Positions 1 through 17,463 of a DNA stretch of 64,000 bases are shown here, one piece after another; position 1 is the first letter of the stretch, and each line of letters begins with the position of its first letter. The translations under genes were made by a program, and so were the position numbers. The notes under the pieces are model-generated. The model did no database searches, was not told the origin of the DNA, and saw only the letters and a program-made list of their open reading frames with translations. Source of the DNA: a virus; the IMG/VR virus record IMGVR_UViG_3300025674_000024, positions 21,660 to 85,659 of that record. One strand, 5' to 3'.

Positions 1-384
1 TGTAAGATCACCGATTTTGTCCTCCTCCTCATCCTCTCCTTCCTCCTCAACCATCTGAGCGGCGAGAGCTAGGAGCTCCTCGTCGGAAAGGTCGGAGAGG
101 TCGATGTCTTCCTCGATCTCATCCTCGTTCTCAGAACGGAGAGCGGAGAGAAGGTCTTCCTGACTCTGCTTGGTGTCCATGTAGTCTCCCTTTCCGTCGG
201 GATACTTCCACAGACCCGTCTTGTCGAGCCAGTCCGCTTTGAAGGGTGCGGTCTCCAACCCGAGTGTGTCACTACCGATCTTAACACCGGCGGTTTCCAC
301 ATCCTCAGCTTGGGAGAGTTGGTTAGAGTAGGCTTCCCTCAGTTGGTCGTAGGCCTCCTGAGAGAATTGACCGAAGCCTGACAT
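1..384 (-). CDS. Acidic protein with effector-array-type leader (partial; runs off the window)
   Basis: Not in the ORF track. Manual translation from ATG 384 gives MSGFGQFSQEAYDQLREAYSNQ...EEEGEDEEEDKIGDLT with no stop to position 1. GGGTAAAA motif 27 nt upstream. Leader resembles the G-x-F-S-x-E-A leaders of neighbouring genes. Confidence 0.8.
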   Translation of the reverse strand, partial: MSGFGQFSQEAYDQLREAYSNQLSQAEDVETAGVKIGSDTLGLETAPFKADWLDKTGLWKYPDGKGDYMDTKQSQEDLLSALRSENEDEIEEDIDLSDLSDEELLALAAQMVEEEGEDEEEDKIGDLT

Positions 385-442
385 GTCGTTGTCCTAGACG
401 TACCTGAGTGTTTTACCCAGCCAGTTTGGACATTGTCATTCC

Positions 443-604
443 TTAGAGGTAGGCTGCGGCGAGAGCTTCTTCTTTCGTGACCTGCCCGCGGCGCTGCATC
501 TCCTCGGCGAGGTCCAAGAGACGCTCGGCCTCTTCGTTCTTGCCTTGGAAGATGAGTTCCTTACGCTTAGCAATAAGGTCGAAGTACTTTGATTTGGATG
601 CCAT
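443..604 (-). CDS. 53-aa small protein directly after the kinase gene (candidate cognate inhibitor)
   Basis: Manual translation MASKSKYFDLIAKRKELIFQGKNEEAERLLDLAEEMQRRGQVTKEEALAAAYL*; starts 2 nt after the kinase stop. Confidence 0.7.
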   Translation of the reverse strand: MASKSKYFDLIAKRKELIFQGKNEEAERLLDLAEEMQRRGQVTKEEALAAAYL

Positions 605-606
605 GA

Positions 607-2322
607 TTAGATCCCGTCGTAAAGTTCGTTGATGTACCGTTCTGCGTCTTGGTCAGTCATCCTACCAAAGATCCTGTTAATTCCGTCCATGGAAGTGCGG
701 ATCTCCGCATTGACTCTGACTCCGAAGTCTTCCTCCATCTTGTCTCTCACTTTCTGAGAGTTGGACACGAAGCGTTGGACAGAGCGAGTGTTGTAGTCCT
801 TAACCCGCATACGGTCCGCTTGCCAGTCACGGCCATTGGTCGTTCCGAGAGCCTCAATGAGAGCTGCTTTAGGACTAGTCTGAGCGAGACCGAAGTCCAC
901 GAGCCCGCCCTTGCCAGTGCTCTTATCGTAGAAGAAGTTCCCGCCGTGCATGTCGTTGTGAGCGACGCCGCGAGTGTGGATCGCTTTGCGTACGCGGAGA
1001 TACTCGTCAGTCGCCGCTTCTTTCTCCTTAGAAGTCATCTGCCAGCGTTGGTCACCGTACGGCTCTCCCGCCATGCGAGACATACCAAGGTAGCCCGAGG
1101 CTTCCTTTACGTGACCACCTAAACCCCCCATCACTATCTTAGCCTTCCCAGAGACCGTGGCTCCGTGTAGAGTTGGCGTCACACCGCTTCCCTCAAGCTT
1201 TTTGATTGCAGCGGCTTCAAACTCTCCAATCTTCCCTTGCTTCGTGACTCCCGGAGGAGGACCCTCGGTCAGCTTCACTCGACCCATAGCGCCTTGGCCG
1301 ATGAGCTGTCCTGGACCAGACATGTCTTTCTTCGGGTCATAACCTTTAATTCCTTGCGGGATGTCAAAGCTTGTCTTCTCACCCACAGCTTTACCTCTTT
1401 TCGCTCTCCCTCCAGCACCCTTGGGAAAAGCACTGCTAGACACGCCTCTTTTACGAAGCTCACCTTCCACTCTCTTTCGCTGGTAAGCGTTAAGCTTCTC
1501 CTCCTTAAGGATTCGCATAAGCTCGGGAGTACGAGCGCCCTGGAGAAGCTTCTTGTTAACAACCATCGCTTTCTTAGGCGGGAGTGTTGAAAGTTTAGCA
1601 GCGGCTTTAGCGGCTTTAGCTTTGGTAACATCACCTGCTCGAGCTATCTTTTTAAGATCCTGCTGCATCGCTCTTTCAATGGAGCCGTAGAGTTTCTTCG
1701 CTACAGGATCCTTGGCTTCTTCCTTGGCCTTGCGAACTCGAGCCAAGCCCTTTTGCATTTCTTGAATCTTATTCTCTATGGCCAGTGTCCCTTCACCCTT
1801 AGGCTTAGGGGGAGTAGGGGGCGCCTCTCCCAGCACTCTCCTCACCATCTCTCGGCGAGCGGCGAGACCGCGAGACCCGGCCGCGAGCTGTTCACGCTCG
1901 AGAGACCGCTTTCCAAGCTCTTCCAGCGGACGGTCCTTGGGCTTTTGCTGTTGATCCTCGTCCTTAGGCTTTAACCTCTCTCCGAGGCGACGAGCGGCGG
2001 ACTTAAGCGGAGCACCTTTCTTAACGATCTTGGCACCGTACTTCTCACGGACCGCATCCGCTACGGACTTCACATCTGCTTGCTTCAGGCCTCTTTCCTT
2101 GGCCTTCTTCGCGATTGCGGGCATGCCCTCTCCGGGCTTCACAGAGATAGGAGTTCCTTTGCGGCATTGTCCCTGAGTGCCGTACACGCTTCCATCGCGA
2201 CGTTGGCACAGTTGCGCAAACTCGAAAGAGTCGTACTCTCCCTCGCTGAATTCTTCTACGAGAGAGTCTTTAACATACGAAAGAAGTTCTTCGTCGAACT
2301 CCCCGTGTTGCGAAAGCTTCAT
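607..2322 (-). CDS. CQRxDG-module protein with C-terminal Ser/Thr-kinase-like domain
   Basis: N-terminal CQRRDGSVYGTQGQCRKG; Lys-rich linker; kinase motifs IGQGAMGRV (Gly loop), VTK, HNDMHGGN (catalytic loop), DFG. Confidence 0.85.
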   Translation of the reverse strand: MKLSQHGEFDEELLSYVKDSLVEEFSEGEYDSFEFAQLCQRRDGSVYGTQGQCRKGTPISVKPGEGMPAIAKKAKERGLKQADVKSVADAVREKYGAKIVKKGAPLKSAARRLGERLKPKDEDQQQKPKDRPLEELGKRSLEREQLAAGSRGLAARREMVRRVLGEAPPTPPKPKGEGTLAIENKIQEMQKGLARVRKAKEEAKDPVAKKLYGSIERAMQQDLKKIARAGDVTKAKAAKAAAKLSTLPPKKAMVVNKKLLQGARTPELMRILKEEKLNAYQRKRVEGELRKRGVSSSAFPKGAGGRAKRGKAVGEKTSFDIPQGIKGYDPKKDMSGPGQLIGQGAMGRVKLTEGPPPGVTKQGKIGEFEAAAIKKLEGSGVTPTLHGATVSGKAKIVMGGLGGHVKEASGYLGMSRMAGEPYGDQRWQMTSKEKEAATDEYLRVRKAIHTRGVAHNDMHGGNFFYDKSTGKGGLVDFGLAQTSPKAALIEALGTTNGRDWQADRMRVKDYNTRSVQRFVSNSQKVRDKMEEDFGVRVNAEIRTSMDGINRIFGRMTDQDAERYINELYDGI

Positions 2323-2325
2323 GAG

Positions 2326-4182
2326 CTACCTACTGCTTACTCCAAAGATGATCTGGAACCAAACTTCCTCATCTTTTTCAAGACTTTCGGCGAAGTCTAA
2401 CCCCTCAATTTTACCGTTCTTAATCACCCCGGTCAGCAAGTTATTTCCCTGATGCTTAAACCCAAGTTTTTCGTACGCTTTTCTACGAACGTCGCCTCCA
2501 CCATCCTCATCAAAAGCGAACGCTCTTACTTTCGTCCCGCTAGGAAGTCCGCCAAGAGCTTCATCAAACTGTCTCTTCGCTGTAAGAGCAATTCTTACCT
2601 GCTGACGACGGTCTGTGACTCCACCTTTGGTGTAGGAATCGTTGACCTTATAGCCAATCTCATAAGATCCGTCCGTCTTTGGAGTGACGAGAGTCTTAAC
2701 TTCGTTACTCCCAACCTTATCAGTGATGTACACTCCCTCAGAGTCACTAGAGACTTTGTCTTTGCTTTCTCCCTTCTTCAGTCTCTCTTCTACTTTCTTA
2801 ATTTTCTCTCCTCTCTTCTTGGCCTCTGGGCTTCCCTTTTCTTCTTGCGCCTTAATCTTTGCGGCGACGCTCATCGCTTCCCTGTTAAGTCTCAGGGCCG
2901 CGTCCATATCACCCTTAGCCATAGCCTCCTGAGCTCTCTTTGCTAAGCCAGAGTACTGAGTCTGAAGGTCGGGTTCTGCTTTCTTTTTAGTTTTAGGCTT
3001 AGTTGCTGTCGGCTTCCCTGAGAGTTCTTTCTTTGCTTGTTCCTTTGTCTTCTTTCCCTCTGCCACATCGAGAGCGGCTTTCGCTCTCTTGTTTCCAGAG
3101 GCCGCGGCTTTCTTCAGGGCCTTCATCTCTTTGGGACCCACGGGAGTACCTTTCCGACAGGTTCCCGAAGTCCCATAGAAGGTCCCGTCCGCACGCTGAC
3201 AACGAGCAAACTCAAGTGAATCCGCTTCGTTAAAGTCGTTTTTCTTATCGGGAGCTCCAAAAATAGCGATGTACCACAGAGCTGTGTCTTTGTCCTTGCC
3301 CTCTGCAAACATCAGGAGAGTGCTGCCTAAACCTTGCTCGGCCCTGTCGGAGGCACTTACTTTTCCACCTTTTCCAATGCGCCCATACTGTGTCCCAGGA
3401 TTTGCATCGGTTCCAGAAGTCGGATCTGAAAAACCCATTCGTTTATAGGCTCTAATTCGAGACGCGCCTCGCCCGTCCTCTCCCCAAGCTGTAGCTTGAA
3501 CTACATAACCTTCAGGCAAGTTTTGTCTATGAGCGTTCCAGACACGCTGAACTTGGCGAGCAATAGCCATTTGCTCTTTCCGGTCTGTGATTTGACCAGC
3601 GTCATACTTGCCGTTGACTTGAAAGTTAAAATCGCCTTGACCAAATGATGTGGTAACTACTGTTCCTCCAGGAGTTGTGAAAGTAGTTCCAAGAAATCCA
3701 TTAGACTTAAATTCAACTTTGGTTCCTTTTGGAACGTCTTTCGTGACTCCTTCCACAACTTTTTCTGAGTTGGTGATGGGCTTGAGAGACTTTTCAGCTC
3801 GCTCTTTCATGAACCCTGCAAATTCATCTTCAGGGTCTTTTTTCAAATACTCGTTTGCTTTCTTTATTTGGTCTTCATAAATCTTTTTGTCTTTTTCAGC
3901 CTTAGCAATAGGACCGAGGGTACCCTTTAGGGTGCCACCTCTTTCGTAGTCAGTAGGCTTTTTAGGAGTTGTCTTTCCTTCAACAACTTTCAAAGCTGCT
4001 TCAGCTTTTTTATTGCCGCTTTTAGCCGCTTTCTTCAGAGCATCGACTTGCTTTTCACTAACTTGCTTTCCTTTGCGGCAAGTTCCAGCAGTGCCGTAAA
4101 ATGTCCCATCGGGACGTTGGCAACGAGCGTAGTCAAGGACTGTGTAAGCGCTCTCTGAGAATGTGGAGTACGTACGTTTCAT
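2326..4182 (-). CDS. Tandem (CQRxDG module + GNAT-like domain) x2 protein
   Basis: Two copies of the Cys module, each followed by a homologous domain (VNGKY...DRKEQMAIA...AWGEDGRGASRIRAYKRMGF and VNDSY...DRRQQVRIA...AFDEDGGGDVRRKAYEKLGF) ending in a GNAT-like Y-x-[KR]-x-G-F motif. Confidence 0.65.
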   Translation of the reverse strand: MKRTYSTFSESAYTVLDYARCQRPDGTFYGTAGTCRKGKQVSEKQVDALKKAAKSGNKKAEAALKVVEGKTTPKKPTDYERGGTLKGTLGPIAKAEKDKKIYEDQIKKANEYLKKDPEDEFAGFMKERAEKSLKPITNSEKVVEGVTKDVPKGTKVEFKSNGFLGTTFTTPGGTVVTTSFGQGDFNFQVNGKYDAGQITDRKEQMAIARQVQRVWNAHRQNLPEGYVVQATAWGEDGRGASRIRAYKRMGFSDPTSGTDANPGTQYGRIGKGGKVSASDRAEQGLGSTLLMFAEGKDKDTALWYIAIFGAPDKKNDFNEADSLEFARCQRADGTFYGTSGTCRKGTPVGPKEMKALKKAAASGNKRAKAALDVAEGKKTKEQAKKELSGKPTATKPKTKKKAEPDLQTQYSGLAKRAQEAMAKGDMDAALRLNREAMSVAAKIKAQEEKGSPEAKKRGEKIKKVEERLKKGESKDKVSSDSEGVYITDKVGSNEVKTLVTPKTDGSYEIGYKVNDSYTKGGVTDRRQQVRIALTAKRQFDEALGGLPSGTKVRAFAFDEDGGGDVRRKAYEKLGFKHQGNNLLTGVIKNGKIEGLDFAESLEKDEEVWFQIIFGVSSR

Positions 4183-4460
4183 CCGCTGAAGAATCCTTTG
4201 CTGTAGAGAGACTCGCCGTAAAGGATGGCTGCAGCTGTGGAATTGGCAACATCCTCCAGGTCAGGTACATCATCGCCACGCTCGGCCATGCGAGTGAAGA
4301 AGGAGATGAGAGCGAAAGCACCATCTAAGTCTGTGAACTCGTCTCCGATGAAGTCTCCGCGACGAATGCCGTAGGGACTTCCATCTTTCGCGAGAGCGAT
4401 GATGATGAAGTTGGAGCCGGGGATGGAGATGGGCTCGGGAAGGTAGAAGAGTTGGTTCAT
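4179..4460 (-). CDS. 93-aa small acidic protein after the DUF3626 gene (candidate cognate inhibitor)
   Basis: ATGA overlaps with both neighbouring genes; lacks the Cys module. Confidence 0.7.
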   Translation of the reverse strand: MNQLFYLPEPISIPGSNFIIIALAKDGSPYGIRRGDFIGDEFTDLDGAFALISFFTRMAERGDDVPDLEDVANSTAAAILYGESLYSKGFFSG

Positions 4461-6226
4461 TTGTAGTAGCGAGAGATGGCCTCGATGTCCCGGTAGTTCG
4501 GGTCAGTGCGCTCGATCTTGAGATCGTTCATCTGAGGAGGAAGTTCCACGATCCTCACTCCCTGCTTCTCGAGCGCTCTGCGGGTAGCGGTGGGGATGTC
4601 GTGTCCTCTGTAGTATCTTACCTCTTTGATATCCGAAGTGCGTAAGCCGCCGTGGATCTGAGCTTCGACGTAGGCGGTCGGGAGGCGCATCCCGCCGTCC
4701 ATTGACGTCGTCATATTCATACGCTGACCGATCGTCCCGCCATTGTACTGGATGTCCTGCACCTGCGTGCGAGGGCTGCTCGGGTTAGCCGGGTCACGGA
4801 CAGGACTGGCCATGATGCCCCTCGGCCGAGCTGCGTCCAGAGAGTCCCCAACAGTAAAGGTCGAGCGGTCCTTAACGCTGTTGTTAAAGACGACTTGCAC
4901 TCCTCCGTACTGCGCCATCTGGTTCGGACCACCCTGCAGGGAACGAGCTCGGTCCGGGTGCTCCAGCGCTGCGTACACCGGGCGCTTTTCCGGAGCTTCC
5001 AACTTCGAGATCCCCATCACAGCCTCCTCTCCGCTCCTTCTTCCTTCGAGGTACCCGCTCTTGCCTCGCTTGATACCGCCCGTTCCAGCTTGGAACCCGT
5101 TCTTCGCCTCTCCCTCTTTGACGAACTTTGCGAAGCCTTTGGGGTTGAAGGCCATGACGGGTTCTGCACCGTCGAGAAAGTCCTTGAGGTCCTTGTCAGC
5201 ACCCCCTCTGGGGACTCGAGTCGGCACGGACGCTGCGACTGTCCCTCCACCGTCAGAAGGAGCTTTGGTGAGCTTTATTGGTTCCCCAAAGTACGCCGCG
5301 TTGACTCCGTCGCGTGGCAGGTCGTTAGCTTTGATCCTTAGGTCGGTAGCCCTGGCTTCGAGAGCTTTTGACGGGTGGTCCTTCGGCGTGTTGTACGCAT
5401 TGAATCCGTCTTTCTCGGCCAGCTCTCTAGCCTTCCGATTCAGCCGATCAGACTCGTCTGTCAGCTTCTTACGCTCTCCCGTGGCCTTGATGAACTCATC
5501 GCGGTCCTGCGCGTGGTAGGCTTGACGCATGAGGAGAGCGGCTTCGTGAGCCTTCCCGATCTTTGCGGAAAGGGCCTTGACCTCCGGATCTTTCCAGTCC
5601 TTCCCCTGCTTCGACAGCTCCGCTGCTTGCTCCTTGAGTTTAGCTTCTCGGTCGAGAGCTCGGTTGAACACCTCCTTGACTTTTTCGTCGGAGATCTTCG
5701 TCGGGCGCTTGCCCGAGTCTTGTGCCGGAGCGGAAACTTCCTCTTTCTTCTTCTCCGCTTTTGGAGTAGTAGCCTTGGGTGCCGGTGCAGGTTCTTCCTT
5801 CTTAGGCTTAGGCTCGGGTTTGACCGAGGCGGGCTTAGGCGCGGGTGTGGGAGTGAAGTCGGGCTTTACCTCCTCTCCCAACCTCTTCTTAATCTCTTTG
5901 AAAGCCGCTACGAGCTCCGGCCCCTTCTTAATCTGCTTGACGCCGAACTTCTCTCTCACTTGGTCCGCGATGGCTTTCACTTCGGCGCCCTTGAGACCCG
6001 CGGCCACGGCTTTCTTATAGAGCACGGGCATACCCTCACCCGGCTCGAGAGTGATCGGCTTTCCTTTGCGACACTGCCCACTCGTTCCGTAGACGGAGCC
6101 GTCTGGGCGCTGACACGCTTGGCCAAACTCGAGAGAGTCGCTGAGTTCGGAGTAGCGGAGAGTGAGCACTTCACGTGCTTTAGCTTCTAAGGAGGAGTCC
6201 CAGCCTCCGTGTTGTGAAAGTCTCAT
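4457..6226 (-). CDS. CQRxDG-module protein with C-terminal DUF3626 (ART-like) domain
   Basis: CQRPDGSVYGTSGQCRKG; C-terminal RPVYAAL, YGGVQVVF...KDRSTFTVGDS and YVEAQIHGGL...DI motifs typical of DUF3626. Confidence 0.75.
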   Translation of the reverse strand: MRLSQHGGWDSSLEAKAREVLTLRYSELSDSLEFGQACQRPDGSVYGTSGQCRKGKPITLEPGEGMPVLYKKAVAAGLKGAEVKAIADQVREKFGVKQIKKGPELVAAFKEIKKRLGEEVKPDFTPTPAPKPASVKPEPKPKKEEPAPAPKATTPKAEKKKEEVSAPAQDSGKRPTKISDEKVKEVFNRALDREAKLKEQAAELSKQGKDWKDPEVKALSAKIGKAHEAALLMRQAYHAQDRDEFIKATGERKKLTDESDRLNRKARELAEKDGFNAYNTPKDHPSKALEARATDLRIKANDLPRDGVNAAYFGEPIKLTKAPSDGGGTVAASVPTRVPRGGADKDLKDFLDGAEPVMAFNPKGFAKFVKEGEAKNGFQAGTGGIKRGKSGYLEGRRSGEEAVMGISKLEAPEKRPVYAALEHPDRARSLQGGPNQMAQYGGVQVVFNNSVKDRSTFTVGDSLDAARPRGIMASPVRDPANPSSPRTQVQDIQYNGGTIGQRMNMTTSMDGGMRLPTAYVEAQIHGGLRTSDIKEVRYYRGHDIPTATRRALEKQGVRIVELPPQMNDLKIERTDPNYRDIEAISRYYK

Positions 6227-6420
6227 TCTTTCTCCACGCTTCGCTTTCTCAACTCCGCCTCTATTGCCTTTCGCCCGCGCTGTGCGAGTTTATCTTTCGT
6301 CTTATTTTCTTTCTCTAGAGAATCCGCTTGACTAGGAAGTCCAAAAATGTATGGATCACCAGCCTCACTTCGACCCATCCTCTCCCGCACTTCTTGAGGT
6401 CTTTTAGGTTGAATTTTCAT
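6223..6420 (-). CDS. 65-aa small protein after the ART gene (candidate cognate inhibitor)
   Basis: Starts 2 nt after the ART stop and overlaps the next start (ATGA). Confidence 0.6.
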   Translation of the reverse strand: MKIQPKRPQEVRERMGRSEAGDPYIFGLPSQADSLEKENKTKDKLAQRGRKAIEAELRKRSVEKE

Positions 6421-6422
6421 GA

Positions 6423-8054
6423 TTAGACTTCCTCCACGGTGAAGATGTGCATCGGCTCGCCCTCAAATGTTTCAACGCGGTGGTTCGTGTATCTATATTT
6501 TGTGCCGCCAGGAGTTAGTATCTCTTTCTCGCCGCTCTGACCAAAGTTTTCAACTGAAGCTCCGGTTCTATTACGCGTTTCAAAGATAACTCTCGCGCGA
6601 TCTTGCACGACCTTACCGGTATATCCCGCTGAGATAAGGGCACTAGTAGACCACGAAGCCGGTGCGGGATCACTAAAAGTACTCTTAGATTGCGCTGCTG
6701 AAATCATCTGATCTAGCGCTGAACTCGGAATGTTAATTCCACGGTACTTTTCTACGTCAGGATGGTCCATTCGCGAAAGCATTTGATCGATTCTCTGCGC
6801 TTGTTTAGCCCGTATTGAATCGGACCCTGGCTGTTCAACTGCCCGTCTAATCGCTCGATAGTCATTTCGTGTGAAGTCGACGATGGAGTCAATACCTTTT
6901 TGAACTTCACGCTCGTCTCCACCGTATGCCTTAATAAGAGCTTTTGCCTGTTTAGACGTACCTAATTCACCCCATTCTCCAAAAATCGCTGTAGAGTTCT
7001 TATGCGCCCCATTTTGAGAAGGATTAGAGTCAGAATCCAGTAGTTTGATCATACTCCGCGACATTTCATATTTACTAAACCGCTCATTGGGGTCTAATTT
7101 CGCATATTCAATCCGGCGGTCTGCCTCTTCCACCCTGTCTTTAATCGGTTTCAAAAGCGCCTGTCTTTCTGTCCAAGAAGCCCCACTTTCTAAAAGTTTC
7201 ATATCGTTCTCTTTCGCGACTTTTAACTCTTTTTTTGCTTGTGTTCGGTCACGAATTGCCACAGCCATTTCTTTCAGATCTTTCGCATCTCTTAAGTTTA
7301 TGAGATTGTAATAGCGTTCTTGATTCTCATCAGAATCACCGGTAGCTTTTTTGCGAAGTTCGCGAAGACTGCTTATTTGATTGTTTATGCGAATTTGTTG
7401 GGCTTCTGTGAGTTGTTTAGGCGTAGGTCTTGAGAAGATACCTCCCTCAATTGCTTTTCTATCATCAGCGATTCTTTGGAGTTGGTCTCGGATAGTGTAC
7501 ATCCGATCGTCAGCTTCGTCACTTCCCGTCTTTTCAAACTCTTCCTTAGCTGCTTTCATTGCAGCTTTAAGTCGAGTTTCTGTGGAATTGATTAGCTGAA
7601 GAGCCTCTTTTTTCTTCGTCTCAGCGTCAGAACCATCCGTCTCCTCTTTTACCTTTTGTTCCTCTCTATTTAAGTTCCTACGTGCTTTTTTACTCTTTTC
7701 ACCAAGCTCTCCGTCTTTCTTCTCATCCTCAGCCCTACCTTGCTCAGGCTTCTTTTGGCTTTTTACGGGCTTTGGAGCGGGCTTGATCGCGCTAGAGGCC
7801 TCTTGAGTTGCTGACGGTTTGAGCCCAGGTTTTTCTGGGTCCTCCGTCCTAGAAAGTTTCTCAAGTGCTTTCTTTGCCCCGGAGTCTCCAGCTTTTGCTT
7901 TAGCCTGCAACTCTTTAATCTCTCTGGGGCCGACCTCCTTGCCTTTACGGCATTGTCCAGAGGTTCCGTAAAAGCTCCCGTCTGAGCGCTGACATCTTGC
8001 AAAGTCAAGGACTTCTAAAGCTTGCTCTGAAAATGTTGAATAAAGTCTTTTCAT
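6423..8054 (-). CDS. CQRxDG-module protein with C-terminal VIP2/Alt-like ADP-ribosyltransferase
   Basis: True start is probably ATG 8054 (MKRLYSTFSEQ; ATGA overlap). R-S-E triad: KYRG, SWSTS, GEKEIL...GTKY. Confidence 0.8.
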   Translation of the reverse strand: MKRLYSTFSEQALEVLDFARCQRSDGSFYGTSGQCRKGKEVGPREIKELQAKAKAGDSGAKKALEKLSRTEDPEKPGLKPSATQEASSAIKPAPKPVKSQKKPEQGRAEDEKKDGELGEKSKKARRNLNREEQKVKEETDGSDAETKKKEALQLINSTETRLKAAMKAAKEEFEKTGSDEADDRMYTIRDQLQRIADDRKAIEGGIFSRPTPKQLTEAQQIRINNQISSLRELRKKATGDSDENQERYYNLINLRDAKDLKEMAVAIRDRTQAKKELKVAKENDMKLLESGASWTERQALLKPIKDRVEEADRRIEYAKLDPNERFSKYEMSRSMIKLLDSDSNPSQNGAHKNSTAIFGEWGELGTSKQAKALIKAYGGDEREVQKGIDSIVDFTRNDYRAIRRAVEQPGSDSIRAKQAQRIDQMLSRMDHPDVEKYRGINIPSSALDQMISAAQSKSTFSDPAPASWSTSALISAGYTGKVVQDRARVIFETRNRTGASVENFGQSGEKEILTPGGTKYRYTNHRVETFEGEPMHIFTVEEV

Positions 8055-8467
8055 TGTTCGTCGGCTCTGTTCATCTGTCCCTTGATCTTCTCTGCCCAGG
8101 CTTTGCCGGCATCGCCTCCCCATAACTCCCAAGAAACTTTTGAAGCGGAGGGTGGGTTGGTAGTGTGGTTCTTCTTGTAGGCGGAGTGACGAGCGAAGAA
8201 GCTGACCATGCGACCAATCGTCCCGGGAGAGAGTTTCTGACGGTTCTTCAGCGAGGCGGCTCGAGCCACTCCGCTTCCGATCCCGGCTTTCCCGGCCTCC
8301 TTAGTCGACAGTCCACCGCGTCCCACTTGTTTGCGCAGAGCGAGACCGCGAGCGGCGGCATCAGCCACGGACTGGGGAGGGCGGAAGTCTATGTTAGCAT
8401 ACTTCTCCGCCCACTCCGGATTCTCGGCCCACTCGAGAGCCTCTTCGCTGAAATGTCCGCCAATCAT
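8051..8467 (-). CDS. Conserved phage head-associated domain protein with array-type leader
   Basis: Leader GHFSEEAL. Domain PP..VA..A.RGL...RA..L...LS..TI.RM.SFFARH...SWELWGGDAG..WA resembles one I recognise from phage head-module proteins. Confidence 0.55.
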   Translation of the reverse strand: MIGGHFSEEALEWAENPEWAEKYANIDFRPPQSVADAAARGLALRKQVGRGGLSTKEAGKAGIGSGVARAASLKNRQKLSPGTIGRMVSFFARHSAYKKNHTTNPPSASKVSWELWGGDAGKAWAEKIKGQMNRADEQ

Positions 8468-9069
8468 CGCGCTCTCACGACTTTGTTTTTGATCCCTCTC
8501 TTAATGGCTTCCTCAGTCATCGCTCTGCGGCGTTGCTCAGGAGTCATATTAGCGAGTTCAGCCTCGCGCTTAGCACCTTGGCCGCTCCGCATCTCCACCT
8601 TAAGGCGGTCCCCCATGGCCTTTTTGATGATCTTGAGTGTCCCCTCCTTGGCGTCAATATCTCCTTCATCCACGGCCTTCATCACAGCTTTGTGGATCTT
8701 TCCGAGGTGAGCTGTGGTCTCCGCTTTAGCGTACACCTTGTCAAAGAGTTTGTCGTGTGTGTCTCCCCACGAGTAAGCTTCCGACTTAGCGGCTTCTTTG
8801 ACCTCGGCCAATGCGGAGGAACTCATAGGCCCTGCGCCACCCTTGGGAGGCTTCACACCGAGATCCTCAGGGCTCACCTCTTTGCCCTTGCGACACTGGC
8901 CTCCAGTGCCGTACTTGGAGCCGTCAGGGCGTTCGCAGGTGGTGAAGTCGTACGCTTCGGAGAAGCTCTGGGCGCTCTCGTCGTAACTGTCTGAAGCACC
9001 GTGCTTTTCAGCGTAAGCCGCATAGAGCTGCTCGATGGATTCGGGTTTAAAGGTGCCTTGGGGTTTCAC
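8464..9069 (-). CDS. CQRxDG-module protein with short helical C-terminus
   Basis: SFSEAYDFTTCERPDGSKYGTGGQCRKG. Confidence 0.75.
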   Translation of the reverse strand: MKPQGTFKPESIEQLYAAYAEKHGASDSYDESAQSFSEAYDFTTCERPDGSKYGTGGQCRKGKEVSPEDLGVKPPKGGAGPMSSSALAEVKEAAKSEAYSWGDTHDKLFDKVYAKAETTAHLGKIHKAVMKAVDEGDIDAKEGTLKIIKKAMGDRLKVEMRSGQGAKREAELANMTPEQRRRAMTEEAIKRGIKNKVVRAR

Positions 9070-9172
9070 GGGTCTGAGGTAATTAAGCCTATTTTAAACC
9101 ATCTAAGCGGGTTACCCACGCTCCTTGATGATCTTGTCGATGCGACGAACTTCAACTTTTTGAGCGGCTCAT

Positions 9173-9835
9173 CTACATGCGCTCCATCTTCTTCGCACGA
9201 GCGAAGTCGGCTTTTGCCTGAGAGTTACTAGTATAAGCTAGTGCTCGCATCCATCCCACTAACTCTTTTCTGTCGTAACTATCAAGGATTCCGCCTTGAT
9301 CTCTACGCTTTTTCAAGAGCTTTTTGATGTTGTCAGCATTGATCTTAGCCTGACCCCCCTGCTCTTCTGCTCTCGCAATGGAGCTTTTCACGGCCGGCAT
9401 AAGCTTTCCTTCGCCACCACTCCCTCTTTCGACGACTCTGAGGATTGTGCGAGAGTCTTTAGACGCTTCTTTTTTGATAGCCTCGAGCTCACTTAGCGTC
9501 TTCTCGTCGCCAGCACGGCGCTGAGCTGCTCGCTCGAACATCCCCTTGGTCTTAGCGGCAGCGGTGGCCTTGTCCTTTTCGCGGCGCATGACGGCTGGGT
9601 TGCTGGCCGCGCCCTGCTTGAGCTTCTCGGTGGGGGTCATCTCTTTCGCCCCAGCCTCCTTGCCCTTGCGGCACTGACCGCCAGTTCCGTAGAAGCTACC
9701 GTCGGGGCGCTGACAGCGGGCGAAGTCGTAGGCCTCGGCGTAGGCCAGTTGGTCCTCGGGATTCTCCGAGTACTTGAGTTCGGCGAGGGCTTTGGCGGCG
9801 GCCAACGCTTCGTCTGTGAAACGGTCTTTCCGCAT
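9173..9835 (-). CDS. CQRxDG-module protein with basic helical C-terminus
   Basis: AYAEAYDFARCQRPDGSFYGTGGQCRKG; GGGTAAAA motif upstream. Confidence 0.75.
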   Translation of the reverse strand: MRKDRFTDEALAAAKALAELKYSENPEDQLAYAEAYDFARCQRPDGSFYGTGGQCRKGKEAGAKEMTPTEKLKQGAASNPAVMRREKDKATAAAKTKGMFERAAQRRAGDEKTLSELEAIKKEASKDSRTILRVVERGSGGEGKLMPAVKSSIARAEEQGGQAKINADNIKKLLKKRRDQGGILDSYDRKELVGWMRALAYTSNSQAKADFARAKKMERM

Positions 9836-9895
9836 GAGTCTGCTTTAATAGGAATGGGTTCCTCTTTTGGGTTTTACCCATTTCAATTATACACT

Positions 9896-9918
9896 AAAAA
9901 GCCCGGGCCTCCCTGGGC
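9896..9918 (-). terminator. Rho-independent terminator after the HNH gene
   Basis: Minus strand GCCCAGG-gagg-CCCGGGC followed by TTTTT. Confidence 0.6.
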
Positions 9919-9937
9919 CAAACTACTATGAGGAGTT

Positions 9938-10594
9938 TCAATCGTCGTATCTAGCTAAGACGTGAAAGACTGAGGAGTTCTTAAGTCTTATGGACTCAGC
10001 AACGTACAAGTCTGGATCAACAATTTGCTCGAACGAGTACCCCAAAGACAAAAGCTTAACCATGTTCCCGTACGTTTTCCATTTCTTCTTTCCTAGAGCT
10101 TTAGCTATGCGATATCCCGTGGAATGCCCGCTAAGATACTCTCCCCATGCCGCCTCATACTCCCCCTCGGTCCAATGCTTCCTCTTTGAAGCCGCGGCTC
10201 TTTGAGCCTTTATCGCCTGAGAATCAGAATACTCTGGCGTCCCCCTGTGCTTATCGTGCATTTTCCTCGCTCGTTCTTGAGCTGGTTTCCACATCAAGCC
10301 TTTACTTTTTGCCTCCTTGATCTTTTCCATTAAGGCTAAACTTCCTCTTTCTCCGCCCTTCATTGCTGCTTCCACTAAGGGAAGATAGGAGTCTTTGCCA
10401 TGCCAAACATGAGCGTGAAAACTTGGAGAGCAAACGTACAGATTGCTTGGGTCATTAGTTCCACCTTGACTTTGAGGGATGCGATGGTGAACGTGCATCC
10501 CTTTCATCTGCTGATCCGTAAGACCCCAGTTCTCTTGAGCTATAGCCCTATAGTGTCTACGATCAACTTTGACTAGGCTAGACTCCTTCTTCAT
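9938..10594 (-). CDS. HNH homing endonuclease
   Basis: HVHHRIPQSQGGTNDPSNLYVCSPSFHAHVWH; C-terminal helix-turn-helix-like segment. Confidence 0.85.
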   Translation of the reverse strand: MKKESSLVKVDRRHYRAIAQENWGLTDQQMKGMHVHHRIPQSQGGTNDPSNLYVCSPSFHAHVWHGKDSYLPLVEAAMKGGERGSLALMEKIKEAKSKGLMWKPAQERARKMHDKHRGTPEYSDSQAIKAQRAAASKRKHWTEGEYEAAWGEYLSGHSTGYRIAKALGKKKWKTYGNMVKLLSLGYSFEQIVDPDLYVAESIRLKNSSVFHVLARYDD

Positions 10595-11409
10595 TAGTCT
10601 TCGTACCTGCTAAGGATTTTGCCGATCACGGAGTTTCTCACTACATCTTCTCGTGTAAACCTCACTCGAGCCACTTCATCAATGTTTGCCAACCGGTGAT
10701 AAGCGTCTAAGAGGCCGTTGTCTGAGTTGAAAACCTCAAGATCAACCTGCTTAGTATCACCAGTGACTACAACTCTAGAGTTTTCAGAAACTCGAGTCAA
10801 AACAGTCTTGACATTATGGATAGTACTGTTTTGAGCCTCATCAAAGATGATTAGACTATCCGCAAAGCTTCGTCCTCGAATGTCCTCCAGCAGGATTGGC
10901 TCAATGAGTTTCTTGTTCATTAGGTACTCAGCTGCACCCTGAGAGCGCATGATCACTGAGAGATTATCAAACACCGGACCTACTAACGGGGCCATCTTTT
11001 CTTCCATAGTTCCAGGAAGAGCACCACGGCCTCTTTGGTGCATAACTCCAACGTCAGAACGAAGGTAGAACACCTTATTGATCAAGTTTTTCCTGAGTGC
11101 CTCAAGTCCCCAGTGAAGAGCGACAAGAGTTTTACCAACTCCACTTGGACCAACGGCTATGGTCACAGTATGGTGGTTGATTGCTTCCCACAGATCATCT
11201 TGACGGTCAGTCAGAGGATTGAACGGGAGCAGATCCATCGTGTTGCGGTGGACGTCGCTCAACATCGCAGCTTCTCGGGCCCGACGTTCTTTACGACGCT
11301 CTTTGCAGGCTGGCATTATGTTAACGGAATTGAAGGTTTGGGTGTCGACTCGGACAACTCTTAGGCGATCATGCGAATCACCTCCATTCCCGCTTGATGT
11401 AGTATCCAT
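10594..11409 (-). CDS. phoH: PhoH family ATPase
   Basis: GPSGVGKT, LPGTMEEKMAP, IRGRSF, DEAQN, TGDTKQVDL, DVVRN. Confidence 0.95.
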   Translation of the reverse strand: MDTTSSGNGGDSHDRLRVVRVDTQTFNSVNIMPACKERRKERRAREAAMLSDVHRNTMDLLPFNPLTDRQDDLWEAINHHTVTIAVGPSGVGKTLVALHWGLEALRKNLINKVFYLRSDVGVMHQRGRGALPGTMEEKMAPLVGPVFDNLSVIMRSQGAAEYLMNKKLIEPILLEDIRGRSFADSLIIFDEAQNSTIHNVKTVLTRVSENSRVVVTGDTKQVDLEVFNSDNGLLDAYHRLANIDEVARVRFTREDVVRNSVIGKILSRYED

Positions 11410-11503
11410 GGCTCGAGAGCTTTGGACTCGAGAGTTTTACCCGGAGAGTCCGTGAGGAGAGTAAGAGAGCCGTAAGTGTCCTCTCCTCACAGTGTCCTCT
11501 CTC

Positions 11504-13192
11504 CTAGTCAATGCCTACATCGTAACGTATATCCTGTCTCCCTCCTCTCCCCTTACCGAAGAATAGGCTGCTCTCCGCAGGTGTGAGCAACTCTCTCCTC
11601 CTCCCAGTCTTCATCTCTCCGAACTCTTTCATCAGATCTTTACGACCCGAGCTCCTGCCTAAGCTACTCCTCAGAGCGTCGTTAAGCTCCGCTCCTCCCC
11701 CGTCAAGATGGAACATGTAGTAGGTACACGCCCAGACGACGGAGTCTGTACGGTCATCATGAGGGACGTGAGGGAACGCTGTGAGTTCCTTGATGAAGTC
11801 CTGAACCCACGCCCCATCTACGAACTTCACTCGTTTGGCTTCAAAGAGCGGGCATATCGTCTGGAGTCGGATCGTCTTGGACTTCAGAGGCTTAAACGGA
11901 TGGACTTGGATCTTGCTCTCGCGTTCCAGCACCTGAATGAGTGATTGCCCAGAAGCGGCTTGCTCGATCGTCATGAAGCGTGCGCCATAATACTTCTGAG
12001 TCTGCTCCACCATGGCCATGAGGTCTGGGAATCCCCATCTCCCGTGCACAAGCTCTCGGATGTAGATGTTGTCAGGATCTTTGCGACTAAATCCCGCTAC
12101 GCATATCACACTCTCGTCAGCCTGTTGCCTCTCGGAGAACGCCGTGTCGAGTGATAGGTAGGTGATGTCAAACTCCGGACACTCGTCTGGGTCTATGACT
12201 TGGACCCACCCGGCCTTGACAATAGAGCCTTCCTGAGCCGTCGGAGTCCCTTGGTACAACGCGGCGAACTTACTGCTTCCCATCGCGCGCTTTTGCGACA
12301 AGAGCATGTCCGTCGTGAAGACGGGGTTTGATGGCCAGTGAGACTCTCCGTTCTTACGGCCTAGAGGGTCTGTAGACTCGTTCTCGCAGATCCCGGGGAT
12401 GTTGATCCAACGCCAGCCCGTCGGATTCTCCACCTCATCATACATCCCGTCGCCGTCCATGAGAATCCCGTGAAGGTCTCTTTCATGGAAGCGCGTGCCG
12501 ATGAGTATTTGCGCCCAGCGGTTGGTGCGGCGTGTGGAAGCTTGTTCACCCCAGAAAGTCTCAAGACCTTCTAAAGCGGCTCTAGAATCAGACCCCTTCA
12601 GTGGGTCATCAATAACGAGGGCCCCAACTCCGGGACTGTCCATCGCAGGTGTACCCGCCGTGAAGCCTGTAAGAACTCCTCCCACTGAAGTAGCTAGGAT
12701 GTATCCCCCTCCTCTTATCCCATACTTTTCATCTGGGATAAAGCCCTGCCACTCTGGGAATACTTTCGTAAAATATTTATGCCTTAAGTACCCAAAGATC
12801 CCTCTATGAAACTTGTTGGAGAGCTGCTGCCCGTACGAAGCAATGATGTGCTGGGTCTGTTGATCTCTCCCAAGTAGCCATGCTACAAAGAGTTGAGAGA
12901 GCATAGACTTCCCAGAACGAGGCGGGCAAGAAACGATAAAGCGTTGATAGCGCCATTCCGCCACATCTTCAAACCCAGAAGCTATGATTTCATGAAATGG
13001 CTCCACCACTAACTTCCCATCAAGCATAAGATCAGAGAAGGCTAAAAAGCAACTTCTTGCTGCTCTATACTTATAGTCTAAGATGATACTTTTCGGGGCC
13101 TCCATGACCGTGAGTTCTTGGAGCCCTCTCTTATAGACTCTCCAGGAAGAAAACTCTTCTAGTTGAGAGACATGGCTAATGATAGGCCTCAT
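11504..13192 (-). CDS. terL: Terminase large subunit
   Basis: PPRSGKS (Walker A), VIDDP (Walker B), GTRFHERDL, ALYQGTP; nuclease domain SLDTAFS...IEQAASG...FPHVPHDDRTDS. Confidence 0.95.
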   Translation of the reverse strand: MRPIISHVSQLEEFSSWRVYKRGLQELTVMEAPKSIILDYKYRAARSCFLAFSDLMLDGKLVVEPFHEIIASGFEDVAEWRYQRFIVSCPPRSGKSMLSQLFVAWLLGRDQQTQHIIASYGQQLSNKFHRGIFGYLRHKYFTKVFPEWQGFIPDEKYGIRGGGYILATSVGGVLTGFTAGTPAMDSPGVGALVIDDPLKGSDSRAALEGLETFWGEQASTRRTNRWAQILIGTRFHERDLHGILMDGDGMYDEVENPTGWRWINIPGICENESTDPLGRKNGESHWPSNPVFTTDMLLSQKRAMGSSKFAALYQGTPTAQEGSIVKAGWVQVIDPDECPEFDITYLSLDTAFSERQQADESVICVAGFSRKDPDNIYIRELVHGRWGFPDLMAMVEQTQKYYGARFMTIEQAASGQSLIQVLERESKIQVHPFKPLKSKTIRLQTICPLFEAKRVKFVDGAWVQDFIKELTAFPHVPHDDRTDSVVWACTYYMFHLDGGGAELNDALRSSLGRSSGRKDLMKEFGEMKTGRRRELLTPAESSLFFGKGRGGRQDIRYDVGID

Positions 13193-13194
13193 CT

Positions 13195-13797
13195 TTATCT
13201 TGGGTTCGTGTACCCACCTCTTTGAACTCCGTAATGGAGATGATATTCTTTAAAAGTCTCCGAAAGGCTGTCCGCTGGGATCCTCTCCCCGTCTATCAAT
13301 ACGCCGTATCTTGTCAGTCTTCCCTTCCTACGGAAGTACTCCCAATCTCCGTAGATTTGAAGCTTTTTCTCTTTTTGTATCTTACGGCTTTTATCCGCAT
13401 TTCTTCTGCATGCTTCTCTCTTCCTTTCCGTCCACACTTTACCAGAGGCCTTAGCAGCTTTTGTCATATGACCGGGAATAGAAGCTGTCTTAAGCCCTCC
13501 CTTTCTCCCAGCTTCTCTAATGACTGCAAGAGAATAGAAGCCTCCGCAATTCTCGTTCAAGCACAGAGGATTGTTCAAATGAGGCTTTATCAGCTCTGTC
13601 TCAGCTTTTCTTGCATCTTCCCAAGATGAAAAGACTTTTAGAATCTCTTTTTGTGGGACATATTCATCCCACTTTGCCCTATGAGTTATAGGACTGCCCC
13701 AATACTCTTCATCAAAGAATTTCTCTTTATGAACACCGAAGTAAAAGTAGTCTGAGCCAACAAATGTGATTTTGTACGTGTAGATTCTAGGCTCCAT
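13195..13797 (-). CDS. GIY-YIG (Seg-like) homing endonuclease
   Basis: N-terminal IYTYKITF...YFYFGVH...YWGS...KEIL...AETELI...CLN pattern; sits between the terS candidate and terL. Confidence 0.7.
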   Translation of the reverse strand: MEPRIYTYKITFVGSDYFYFGVHKEKFFDEEYWGSPITHRAKWDEYVPQKEILKVFSSWEDARKAETELIKPHLNNPLCLNENCGGFYSLAVIREAGRKGGLKTASIPGHMTKAAKASGKVWTERKREACRRNADKSRKIQKEKKLQIYGDWEYFRRKGRLTRYGVLIDGERIPADSLSETFKEYHLHYGVQRGGYTNPR

Positions 13798-16022: not shown

Positions 16023-16420
16023 TAGACTACAGCACGGATGGATGAGATGGCGGAACCGGAAACTTTGTAAAGTCCCCCTGTAGGAACGCCACCGGCTATC
16101 GCAGCGGCCTGATCAGCATATTCGGTAAGTTCGCTGACGAGAGCGTCCACGACAGCGTCGGAATCAAGAGAGGAAGCGACAGGAGGGACAGTAGCCGTGA
16201 CCCACGCTCCCTGATAATAGACGTAGAGTTCTCCGGTGTCGGAATCCCACCACAAGTATCCGGCTTGAGGAGCTGTAGGAGGGAGAGAGTTGATGTAGAC
16301 CGGAGGAGAGACTTCCGCGGAAGCTACCGCCTCCCAGGAAGTTCCGTTCCACTTCCAGGACTGGTCTCCGACCGTGTAGATCTGGTTGAGAGTGGGGGAT
16401 GTGGGGAAAGAGAGTGCCAT
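16022..16420 (-). CDS. Small virion/fibre-associated protein
   Basis: FPTSPTLNQIY...WKWNGTSW and PP..PQAGYLWWDSDTGELYVYY motifs common in cyanophage structural proteins. Confidence 0.65.
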   Translation of the reverse strand: MALSFPTSPTLNQIYTVGDQSWKWNGTSWEAVASAEVSPPVYINSLPPTAPQAGYLWWDSDTGELYVYYQGAWVTATVPPVASSLDSDAVVDALVSELTEYADQAAAIAGGVPTGGLYKVSGSAISSIRAVV

Positions 16421-16422
16421 TG

Positions 16423-17463
16423 TCAGGAGCTAGAGGAGTTGCCAGATGTGATAATAGCGCCGTCGTCCGCGGGTTGCTGAGGGAGGTAGGCCTCGTCCCC
16501 GAAATCACCCCAGTTCGGCTCATCGTTGTTGTTCTCAGCGTTGAAGAAGTCCCAACGGTAGTCCGGCACGCGATCGCCGCCGGTGTCGCTCCACCAGCCG
16601 CTGAGTCCCTTGCCGCTGACGCCGTTGTAGTATTGTGGGGTGCGCCAAGAACGGAGGAGTCCCGCTCTAGAATTGATCGCCATCTCCCCGTCCGGACGGA
16701 CGGCGGGGTTGTAAGTGGTGGCGGCCTCGAGCTCCTTGATCGCTCTCTCGTAGTCCTTTAAGATGTCCTCCCGGCGTCTCACCGTGTCGAGGTAGTACCT
16801 CGCGATGATCAGAGAGGTTCGGCGACGGTTGGAGCTGACGAGCAGCTTCCCCGCTTTGGTGGACTGGTTGATGTAAGAGTCGATCAGCGCGCAAGCGTCC
16901 TGGATCGCCATCTCCAGACGTACGACGTTCGGTTGAGCGGCGTCCGCATCGTCAATGTTTGTGATCTGGATCGCTTCCTTCAGTCCGTAGGCCATGATGA
17001 AGTCGTCCGAAGTTGCCGATCTTGGGTCCGCGGAACGATCTCGCCGAGAGTAAGCTTCTCCGCTCGCGTAAGCACCGAGGTTGGACATCTCATTCCAACC
17101 TAGTTGCTCCTCAGCCGGCTTCTGAAGATTCTTTGCTTGGACCTTAAAGAACGCGCGAACCGCATTACGACGGATCGTAGCGACGGAGGCACCAGACCTG
17201 ACTGGGGCTCTGAGAGCTCGGTTAATGTCCGTAGGAGGAGTGTAGTTGACGAAGACCTTGTCACCCAGCTTAACGTTCTTCCCGAACGTGAGAGTGATCT
17301 CGTTCGTCTCAGAGTAGGCTCGGTCGGTTACTGGGATCTTCCCGTAGTTGATCGTGAAAGACGTGACTGGCACATCAATCGTATCGTCCAGAGTCTGATC
17401 AAAGACGAGAACGCCCTTGGACTGCTCCTTTATGGTAAACTCGAGTAGCTGCGGTGCCGCCAT
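16423..17463 (-). CDS. Mu gp36-like (DUF1320) head-tail adaptor with N-terminal SwmB-like domain
   Basis: AIQDACALIDSYI...IARYYL...YERAIKEL; N-terminal L.FDQ.LD...FTI...ITLT......GDKV.VNY.PP. Confidence 0.7.
   Translation of the reverse strand: MAAPQLLEFTIKEQSKGVLVFDQTLDDTIDVPVTSFTINYGKIPVTDRAYSETNEITLTFGKNVKLGDKVFVNYTPPTDINRALRAPVRSGASVATIRRNAVRAFFKVQAKNLQKPAEEQLGWNEMSNLGAYASGEAYSRRDRSADPRSATSDDFIMAYGLKEAIQITNIDDADAAQPNVVRLEMAIQDACALIDSYINQSTKAGKLLVSSNRRRTSLIIARYYLDTVRRREDILKDYERAIKELEAATTYNPAVRPDGEMAINSRAGLLRSWRTPQYYNGVSGKGLSGWWSDTGGDRVPDYRWDFFNAENNNDEPNWGDFGDEAYLPQQPADDGAIITSGNSSSS

Follow-up and report, generated by a model that had tools for sequence, protein, structure and literature searches.

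What is the role of the small genes that directly follow enzyme genes in the effector array of a cyanophage? The question is raised by a stretch of 64,000 nucleotides (hereafter the window), bases 21660-85659 of the 85,659-base IMG/VR record IMGVR_UViG_3300025674_000024 (CheckV completeness 38%), and it belongs to the genome of a cyanomyovirus. Downstream of the genes for TerL and PhoH, and on the same minus strand, it carries an array of packed genes whose products mostly have a Cys motif at the start (C-Q-R-x-D-G ... C-R-K-G) and differing domains at the end; this N-terminal Cys module is common to six array proteins with differing C-terminal domains. Three of the genes encode predicted enzymes, namely a kinase, an ADP-ribosyltransferase (ART) resembling Salmonella SopF, and a second ART of the R-S-ExE type, and each is followed at once by one short ORF (open reading frame), here called s53, s93 and s65, respectively. 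According to the initial annotation, these ORFs would encode cognate immunity proteins that silence each enzyme in the producing cell until it is packaged. The small ORFs probably encode enzyme-specific partner proteins, and their linkage to the upstream enzyme domain is strongly supported for s53 and s93 and circumstantial for s65. In a new host, the proteins injected along with phage DNA are the earliest of the phage's tools at work, and we know of no targets or controls of the virion kinases and ARTs of cyanophages.

The sequences compared with the window include its source record (G000, whose part upstream of the window is L018), a second IMG/VR record (G001, locus L003), Synechococcus phage S-CBWM1 (L001), metagenome relatives of the window (L004-L008), and the T4-like phages S-B68, S-H34, S-N03, S-CRM01 and S-CREM2 (L023-L027, in this order).

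Small genes directly behind the enzyme genes

The three ORFs lie where the initial annotation had placed them: the minus strand has open frames of 53 aa at 443-604, of 93 aa at 4179-4460 and of 65 aa at 6223-6420. Their close junctions were likewise confirmed: the kinase stop codon and the s53 start, as well as the R-S-ExE ART stop and the s65 start, are separated by a gap of 2 nt, and the SopF-like (DUF3626-like) gene and s93 share a 4-nt ATGA overlap. None of the three products contains any Cys, and, as had also been claimed, no mutual similarity was detected among them (blastp, word size 2, no pair at E<=10). Identical ten bases, TCTAATCATG, consisting of the stop TAA, two bases and ATG, occur at the kinase/s53 (600-612) and the ART/s65 (6416-6428) junctions on the minus strand; this shared junction could reflect termination-reinitiation, or chance.

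Coding capacity was assessed by comparing all six frames under a codon model for which 15 long ORFs of the window had served as training set. The annotated frame scored best for s53 (0.509 versus 0.123 in the next-best frame) and s93 (0.496 versus 0.162); it was also best for s65, but the score was weak (0.059 versus -0.138), though on a par with that of the neighbouring ART gene (0.133). The ratio of nonsynonymous to synonymous substitution rates (dN/dS) indicated purifying selection, with 0.14 for s93 (versus L004), 0.18 for s53 (versus L008, dS being saturated) and 0.15 for the kinase. Used as single queries against IMG/VR, s53, s93 and s65 retrieved no relatives, and the sole match of a small ORF among the PHROGs was a weak one of s53 to phrog_3582, a family of unknown function (E 0.0016).

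The upstream enzymes

The enzyme assignments made earlier were upheld on the whole. The kinase (Effector 1, 607-2322) combines an N-terminal Cys module with a C-terminal protein-kinase-like domain, in whose translation a glycine-rich loop, an HxD...N catalytic loop and a DFG motif are visible. Pfam searches with the protein gave sub-threshold ABC1, Pkinase and APH matches (residues 427-487), and PF01636 (the APH model) was above the cut-off in the frame. Among the homologues of the protein are the S-CRM01 and S-CREM2 kinases, known as virion proteins from annotation or report.

The SopF-like protein (Effector 2, 4457-6226) consists of a Cys module and a C-terminal ART domain. Its Pfam match to DUF3626 stayed below the cut-off (E 1.3e-4, 21.5 bits versus 27 bits), and a profile of the C-terminal domain built with seven phage homologues (8 sequences in all) matched PDB entries 7dn8 (E 7e-8) and 7dn9 (E 7e-7), which points to the SopF ART fold; in the profile alignment, the phage sequence EAQIHG is placed on the catalytic-Glu motif EAHIHG of SopF. 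SopF contains DUF3626 (PMC6682159), and 7DN8 is the structure of SopF with ARF1 (PMC10333799). SopF was reported to be an ARF1-activated ADP-ribosyltransferase, in which this small protein cofactor is required to expose the catalytic site (PMC12560355).

The R-S-ExE ART (Effector 3, 6423-8054) is composed of a Cys module, a helical linker and a C-terminal ART domain (residues ~340-543). Its gene most likely starts at ATG 8054 and not at TTG 8132 of the ORF list, as indicated by the ATGA overlap with the ORF at 8051-8467 and by the agreement of homologue N-termini. The C-terminal 204 residues have 135 homologues in a representative protein library; in an alignment of 54 of them, every sequence keeps R99, S128 (which opens the S-T-S motif) and E172, and nearly all keep E170, which forms the E-x-E motif with E172; 14 of the 54 match PF03496 and eight match PF01129. 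The profile matched the PDB structures of Vis (4xzj, E 1.4e-17) and HopU1 (E 1.2e-8), entries 6drh and 6dre (both E 5e-9), and also Vip2 and C2-I, and the atlas lead of the domain was 0.96. Entries 6drh and 6dre carry the file label 'PAAR repeat-containing protein', and we take them to be Tre1. A profile was needed here, as the ART protein itself gave no direct Pfam match and no useful PDB sequence match; PDB sequence searches with the whole ART and DUF3626 proteins returned nothing useful, and the profiles gave the matches. A search of IMG/VR with a narrower ART alignment (A5) yielded no locus. By these motif and profile results, the array encodes a kinase and two ARTs unrelated to each other, all with their catalytic motifs in place, and the three enzymes are predicted to be catalytically intact.

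Close homologues of this ART share the Cys module of the window, and others bear a second, S-CBWM1-type Cys leader (K-R-C-x-K-G-K-S-C-G/S-x-x-C-I). The second leader is found in S-CBWM1 gp106, in the extended frame of the kinase gp113, and in the ART homologues P0020, P0021 and P0024; since it heads ART homologues as well as the gp113 kinase frame, the same cargo domains are joined to two leaders. Matches to the window-type module are also present in S-CBWM1, at 120932-121060 and 26735-26830.

s53 follows one clade of virion kinases

An s53-like ORF lies directly 3' of every kinase of this clade with a visible 3' flank (15/15), i.e., those of the window, L007, L008, G001 (two), S-CBWM1 (gp113), S-B68, S-H34, S-CRM01, S-N03, S-CREM2, MA01, MA10, ME01 and MC09. 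The pairs of MA01, MA10, ME01 and MC09 were judged by coordinates, and the L005 kinase, cut by the contig end, was left uncounted. Each of the two G001 kinases is followed by an s53 homologue of 50 or 51 aa, L007 and L008 have one kinase-s53 pair each, and in S-CBWM1 the s53-like gp114 comes next to gp113, the two genes overlapping by 4 nt. When the kinase domain was used as a tblastn query, 14 phage records were found, all of Synechococcus phages. In S-B68, S-H34, S-CRM01, S-N03 and S-CREM2, an ORF of 74-79 aa is located 14-38 nt after the kinase gene, and these ORFs are homologous to s53 (pairwise blastp E 1e-9 to 1e-3), with a common C-terminal ...L-A-A-A-Y-L. With S-CRM01 g129 as the query, 11 of 50,697 phage records were matched, all of them within the 14 kinase records and with the match just 3' of the kinase. 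Profile searches gave as many s53 copies as clade kinases per record, namely one in G000, two in G001, and one each in S-CBWM1, S-CRM01 and S-CREM2.

The clade kinases of the T4-like cyanophages have no Cys module and yet retain the partner ORF, so what s53 accompanies is the kinase domain, not the leader. The kinases of the two phage lineages are only ~26% identical to each other. In the s53 family alignment (A6), M1, V42, A49 and Y52 are invariant, and the C-terminus reads ...V-S/T-x5-A-A-x-Y-L/I. The AlphaFold2 (AF2) model of s53, a predicted three-helix protein, has helices at residues 6-19, 23-38 and 44-51 (predicted local distance difference test, pLDDT, 89.4), and its comparison with the PDB by Foldseek found no significant structural neighbour (best E 1.2). 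The conserved Ser/Thr and Tyr of the C-terminal tail suggest a pseudosubstrate-type or active-site-plugging kinase inhibitor.

Two features of the surroundings may be added. The T4-like cluster C cyanophages (L023-L027) share a conserved block of an ORF15-like gene, the kinase gene, the s53-like gene and a large downstream gene; the ~150-aa protein encoded upstream in this block has a Cys motif of its own (C-P-x-G-H-x-W-D ... C-V-P), and its S-CREM2 copy is a virion protein (4 peptides). Large HNH-type nuclease-like proteins are encoded beside kinase-s53 pairs in G001, in S-CBWM1 (gp106, L001 19107-20669) and in S-CREM2 (ORF12, annotated as Cas9-like, detected in the virion with 28 peptides).

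s93 follows the SopF-like ART

Homologues of the acidic s93 (pI 4.1) were found in metagenomes, 14 among 16 candidates at E<=0.01, with 58-97% identity; a search of IMG/VR with the s93 alignment found none. In all six loci, the window and five related metagenome loci, s93 stands directly after the SopF-like ART gene, of which in some of the five only the last 45-54 codons are visible upstream. The gene downstream of s93 varies among these loci, being the duplicated effector in the window, L004 and L007, a kinase in L005 and L008, and a short kinase-like Cys protein in L006. G001 is without both the SopF-like gene and s93. Co-occurrence with the enzyme across genomes, the check proposed with the initial annotation, was thus observed for s53 with its kinase in all 15 cases and for s93 with the SopF-like ART in all five related loci, next to three kinds of downstream neighbour. 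The AF2 model of s93 has a pLDDT of only 50.8, too low for a fold to be read; the atlas score of s93 was <0.8.

More distant phages show a similar arrangement. Behind each of the five inspected SopF-like C-terminal domains, whose fusion partners are a minor capsid protein, a portal protein or other proteins, comes a small ORF (42-111 aa).

s65 and the R-S-ExE ART

The product of s65 is a basic, K/R/E-rich ORFan. GC content at third codon positions (GC3) is low in both the ART gene (0.40) and s65 (0.38), which stand out as one block from their neighbours on either side (0.64 and 0.68). L007 and L008 are without both the ART gene and s65, and p138, the 138-aa ORF that precedes the ART gene in the window, leads there to the SopF-like gene directly or after one short Cys protein. 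In G001, a 459-aa protein has residues 1-332 in common with the ART effector (40% identity) but carries another C-terminal domain, and another 65-aa ORF lies downstream; polymorphic cassettes would be expected to show just such a swap of domain and small ORF. A -1 frameshift or readthrough of the ART gene into s65 was considered as well, and was rejected because no slippery heptamer precedes the stop codon.

Possible roles of the partner proteins

As far as sequence comparison can tell, the pairs are real genes that are inherited and exchanged with the upstream enzyme domain, and not with the N-terminal module or the downstream gene. The kinase, the SopF-like ART and the R-S-ExE ART would each form a two-gene cassette with a domain-specific partner. 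Partner and enzyme would be made in roughly equal amounts through translational coupling, and the partner, as an immunity-like inhibitor, would bind the enzyme one-to-one and hold it inactive during the assembly of new virions. With the partner appearing only late, the enzyme injected into the next host would have a free early phase before being quenched late.

That the partners are inhibitors or immunity proteins of their cognate enzymes is proposed here tentatively, as a reasonable possibility. It fits the logic of polymorphic toxins and their phage precedent (PMC5576092), and it agrees with catalytic sites that are intact, with translational coupling and with the specificity for the domain. 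As in polymorphic toxin-immunity systems, a conserved N-terminal module is joined to variable C-terminal enzyme domains, and a small downstream ORF co-varies with the C-terminal domain (s53, s93, and s65 with the 65-aa ORF of G001). The fuller proposal, that late domain-specific antidotes both silence the new enzyme and quench the injected one, and that s53 is the first phage-encoded PKI-like inhibitor of a virion kinase across unrelated cyanomyovirus lineages, is distinctly doubtful when all its parts are taken jointly.

A number of observations weigh against inhibition. The tight coupling that the initial annotation noted is not special to the enzyme/small-ORF junctions: between TerL and the acidic gene, nine of 13 junctions overlap or leave a gap of <=3 nt. 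Nor was it correct that the non-enzymatic gene at 8464-9069 lacks such a partner, as it is followed, with a 4-nt ATGA overlap, by the 138-aa ORF at 8051-8467, which has no Cys module. A small next gene is not rare, since 8 of 42 genes (~20%) in the S-CBWM1 stretch are <100 aa. None of s53, s93 and s65 matched known immunity, antitoxin or defence families (Pfam at E<=0.1; NCBIfam and PADLOC at E<=1), and only s93 is acidic against a basic enzyme. The small ORFs after the distant SopF-like domains (L5 gp3, MissE2_0036, the 57-aa ORF of MW202897, and 2AV2 gp018) show no detectable similarity to s93 or to each other (hhalign, blastp). The product of s65 matched only itself among 5.8 billion clusters. 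No kinase-s53 fusion was found among longer proteins, which is weak evidence.

Several other enzymes also stand without a small partner. The GNAT-like effector (2326-4182), which has two Cys modules and in which the C-terminal unit is duplicated, is one of them, the kinase gene starting 3 nt past its stop codon. In L006, a 250-aa protein (470-1222) with a Cys module and a short kinase-like domain (weak Pkinase and ABC1 matches) is followed by a 93-aa Cys-module ORF and not by an s53-like gene, and the HNH protein of G001 (L003 17945-19285), which has a variant leader, is followed by no small ORF. In S-CBWM1, neither gp161 (ChoK-like) nor gp162 (APH-like) precedes a small ORF, and the genome holds no second s53 copy. 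To our knowledge, T4 Alt, a packaged ART, has no immunity protein. ChoK and APH kinases were reported in S-CBWM1 virions (PMC10665884).

The idea that the enzymes are kept silent only until they are packaged is weakened by S-CREM2 ORF13, the s53 homologue, which was detected in the CsCl-purified virion proteome with one unique peptide (11.5% coverage), compared with 21 peptides for the kinase ORF14, 28 for ORF12 and 4 for ORF15 (PMC10665884, Table 3). The partner may therefore be co-packaged and not left behind. Likewise, SopF needs the protein cofactor ARF1, so a partner could be an activator (PMC12560355).

Both points lead to the first alternative: as regulatory subunits or cofactors, which activate the enzyme, stabilise it or give it specificity, the small proteins would be packaged along with it and enter the next host in its company. 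The presence of ORF13 in the virion together with its kinase ORF14 and the neighbours ORF12 and ORF15 (PMC10665884), the exposure of the SopF catalytic site by ARF1 (PMC12560355) and the SopF-ARF1 complex in 7DN8 all favour it, and the strict domain-specific linkage suits an obligate subunit as well as an inhibitor. We nevertheless regard it as somewhat unlikely: the virion detection of ORF13 is based on a single peptide, the small proteins have neither the Cys module nor another common leader for capsid targeting, and related virion kinases work without such a partner gene.

Effector-specific chaperones or adaptors, in the style of type III or type VI secretion, would keep the cargo soluble or unfolded and give it to the prohead while leaving catalysis uncontrolled. 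Small, tightly coupled, cognate genes beside cargo genes in a morphogenesis operon, and the acidic pI of s93, are what such chaperones would be expected to show, but most cargo genes of the arrays have no such partner, and a packaging-signal role is disfavoured because s53 tracks the kinase domain even where the T4-like phages have a different N-terminal delivery module. This explanation is accordingly improbable. The weakest alternative, which applies mostly to s65, is that ordinary small phage ORFs between larger genes have no functional relation to the enzymes and that s65 is maybe no functional gene; it may draw on the frequency of small genes in S-CBWM1, the general tightness of the array and the weak coding score of the homologue-less s65, yet it is very improbable, as chance explains neither the adjacency of s53 to kinases ~26% identical in two lineages nor that of s93 to its ART in all five related loci with changing downstream neighbours, and both genes are under purifying selection.

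Comparison with known systems

Among known systems, the nearest in kind are the MuF polymorphic toxins, which have a small ORF downstream. In the MuF toxins of temperate phages, a head-associated N-terminal part is likewise joined to variable C-terminal enzymes, ARTs included, and the small 'immunity' ORF immediately downstream varies along with the C-terminal domain; the toxins are proposed to be delivered with the DNA (Jamet et al. 2017, PMC5576092). A MuF-like likeness is also seen in the SopF-like domain of the window, which recurs as the C-terminal extension of the 'minor capsid protein' of Streptococcus phage MissE2 and of the portal protein of MW202897. However, the array is not a member of the MuF family, because none of its 10 proteins examined has a MuF domain (Phage_Mu_F or Phage_min_cap2, no Pfam match at E<=0.1). 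Unlike the MuF toxins, the array has a short Cys motif as the common module, several tandem effectors and a kinase cargo with its own conserved partner family, and it belongs to cyanobacterial hosts and myovirus relatives instead of temperate Firmicutes phages.

Among head-packaged ARTs and polyvalent effectors of myoviruses, T4 Alt included, ARTs are encoded beside terminase and head genes, their packaging and injection being predicted or known, and they belong to the Alt/VIP2-like R-S-E family (Iyer et al. 2022, PMC9503650). In contrast to the array of the window, cognate small partner genes are not described for them in the part of that article available. The order of a toxin gene followed by an antidote gene is shared with Tre1-Tri1 and other ART toxin-immunity pairs; s65 differs in that it encodes only 65 aa with no domain match and cannot be an ARH-type hydrolase immunity protein. 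Salmonella SopF (DUF3626) has a probably homologous catalytic domain with an aligned catalytic Glu motif, whereas the phage protein is fused to a Cys module, is followed by s93, and comes from a phage/cyanobacterium setting in which no ARF protein is expected.

The virion-detected kinases of S-CRM01, S-CBWM1 and S-CREM2 have a homologous kinase domain (~23-29% identity), and the ORF downstream of the kinase is listed there only as a 'hypothetical protein' (PMC10665884). A literature search on cyanophage kinases and immunity proteins found nothing relevant. The homology of the s53-like proteins across phages and their strict pairing with the kinase are shown here, and of what is new, the most concrete is this conserved pair of kinase and s53.

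Genome setting of the array

The TerL protein of the window (11504-13192, minus strand) shares 50.6% identity with its counterpart in Synechococcus phage S-CBWM1 and 79% with the one in G001. The array downstream of the terminase is one tightly packed late operon, and its effectors are probably carried in the capsid. Past the window start, it continues with an acidic protein, more small genes and a baseplate-wedge-like gene, and it therefore lies inside the morphogenesis region; the order TerL, PhoH, array, baseplate wedge is also found in S-CBWM1. A promoter and terminator scan of positions 1-13400 gave no excess over shuffled sequences and no signal dividing the pairs.

Two short Cys-module proteins with no recognised enzyme domain are encoded at 9173-9835 and 8464-9069 on the minus strand, as are all array genes, the former being followed by a 103-nt gap. 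The latter precedes p138 (8051-8467), a conserved ORF that is translationally coupled on both sides. All six copies of p138 (window, G001 twice, L006, L007 and L008) come after a short non-enzymatic Cys-module protein, with a 44-aa ORF between in L007. The copies in L003 (13245-13661 and ~16170-16586), L006 (1510-1929), L007 (2618-3034) and L008 (3086-3502) share 78-89% identity with that of the window, and the gene immediately after p138 is an effector gene. The ORF aligns with the middle part of phrog_2859 (E 1e-12), a PHROG with 740 positions and of unknown function.

GC3 differs by cassette across positions 1-9835 of the minus strand: it is 0.64 for p138, 0.68 for the SopF-like gene with 0.63 for s93, 0.43 for the duplicated effector, and 0.57 for the kinase with 0.69 for s53, in addition to the low block of the R-S-ExE ART and s65. 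This mosaic suggests separate origins of the cassettes. An HNH-like ORF of 218 aa (9938-10594, minus strand) lies between PhoH and the array and is not at that place in G001 or L007, and two GIY-YIG-like ORFs flank the baseplate-wedge-like gene upstream of the window in G000 (L018 11794-12411 and 15968-16552); all three are probably homing endonucleases.

Implications for cyanophage biology

Two pairs, the kinase with s53 and the SopF-like ART with s93, are ready for biochemistry on the control of packaged enzymes. With s53, a very small conserved partner of one kinase clade has been recognized across T4-like and S-CBWM1-like cyanophages. If the partners should instead prove to be co-packaged activators, they would represent a new way of delivering two-component enzymes. 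The logic of a toxin with a downstream small ORF, as in the MuF systems, is extended by these pairs to another delivery module and to marine and freshwater myoviruses.

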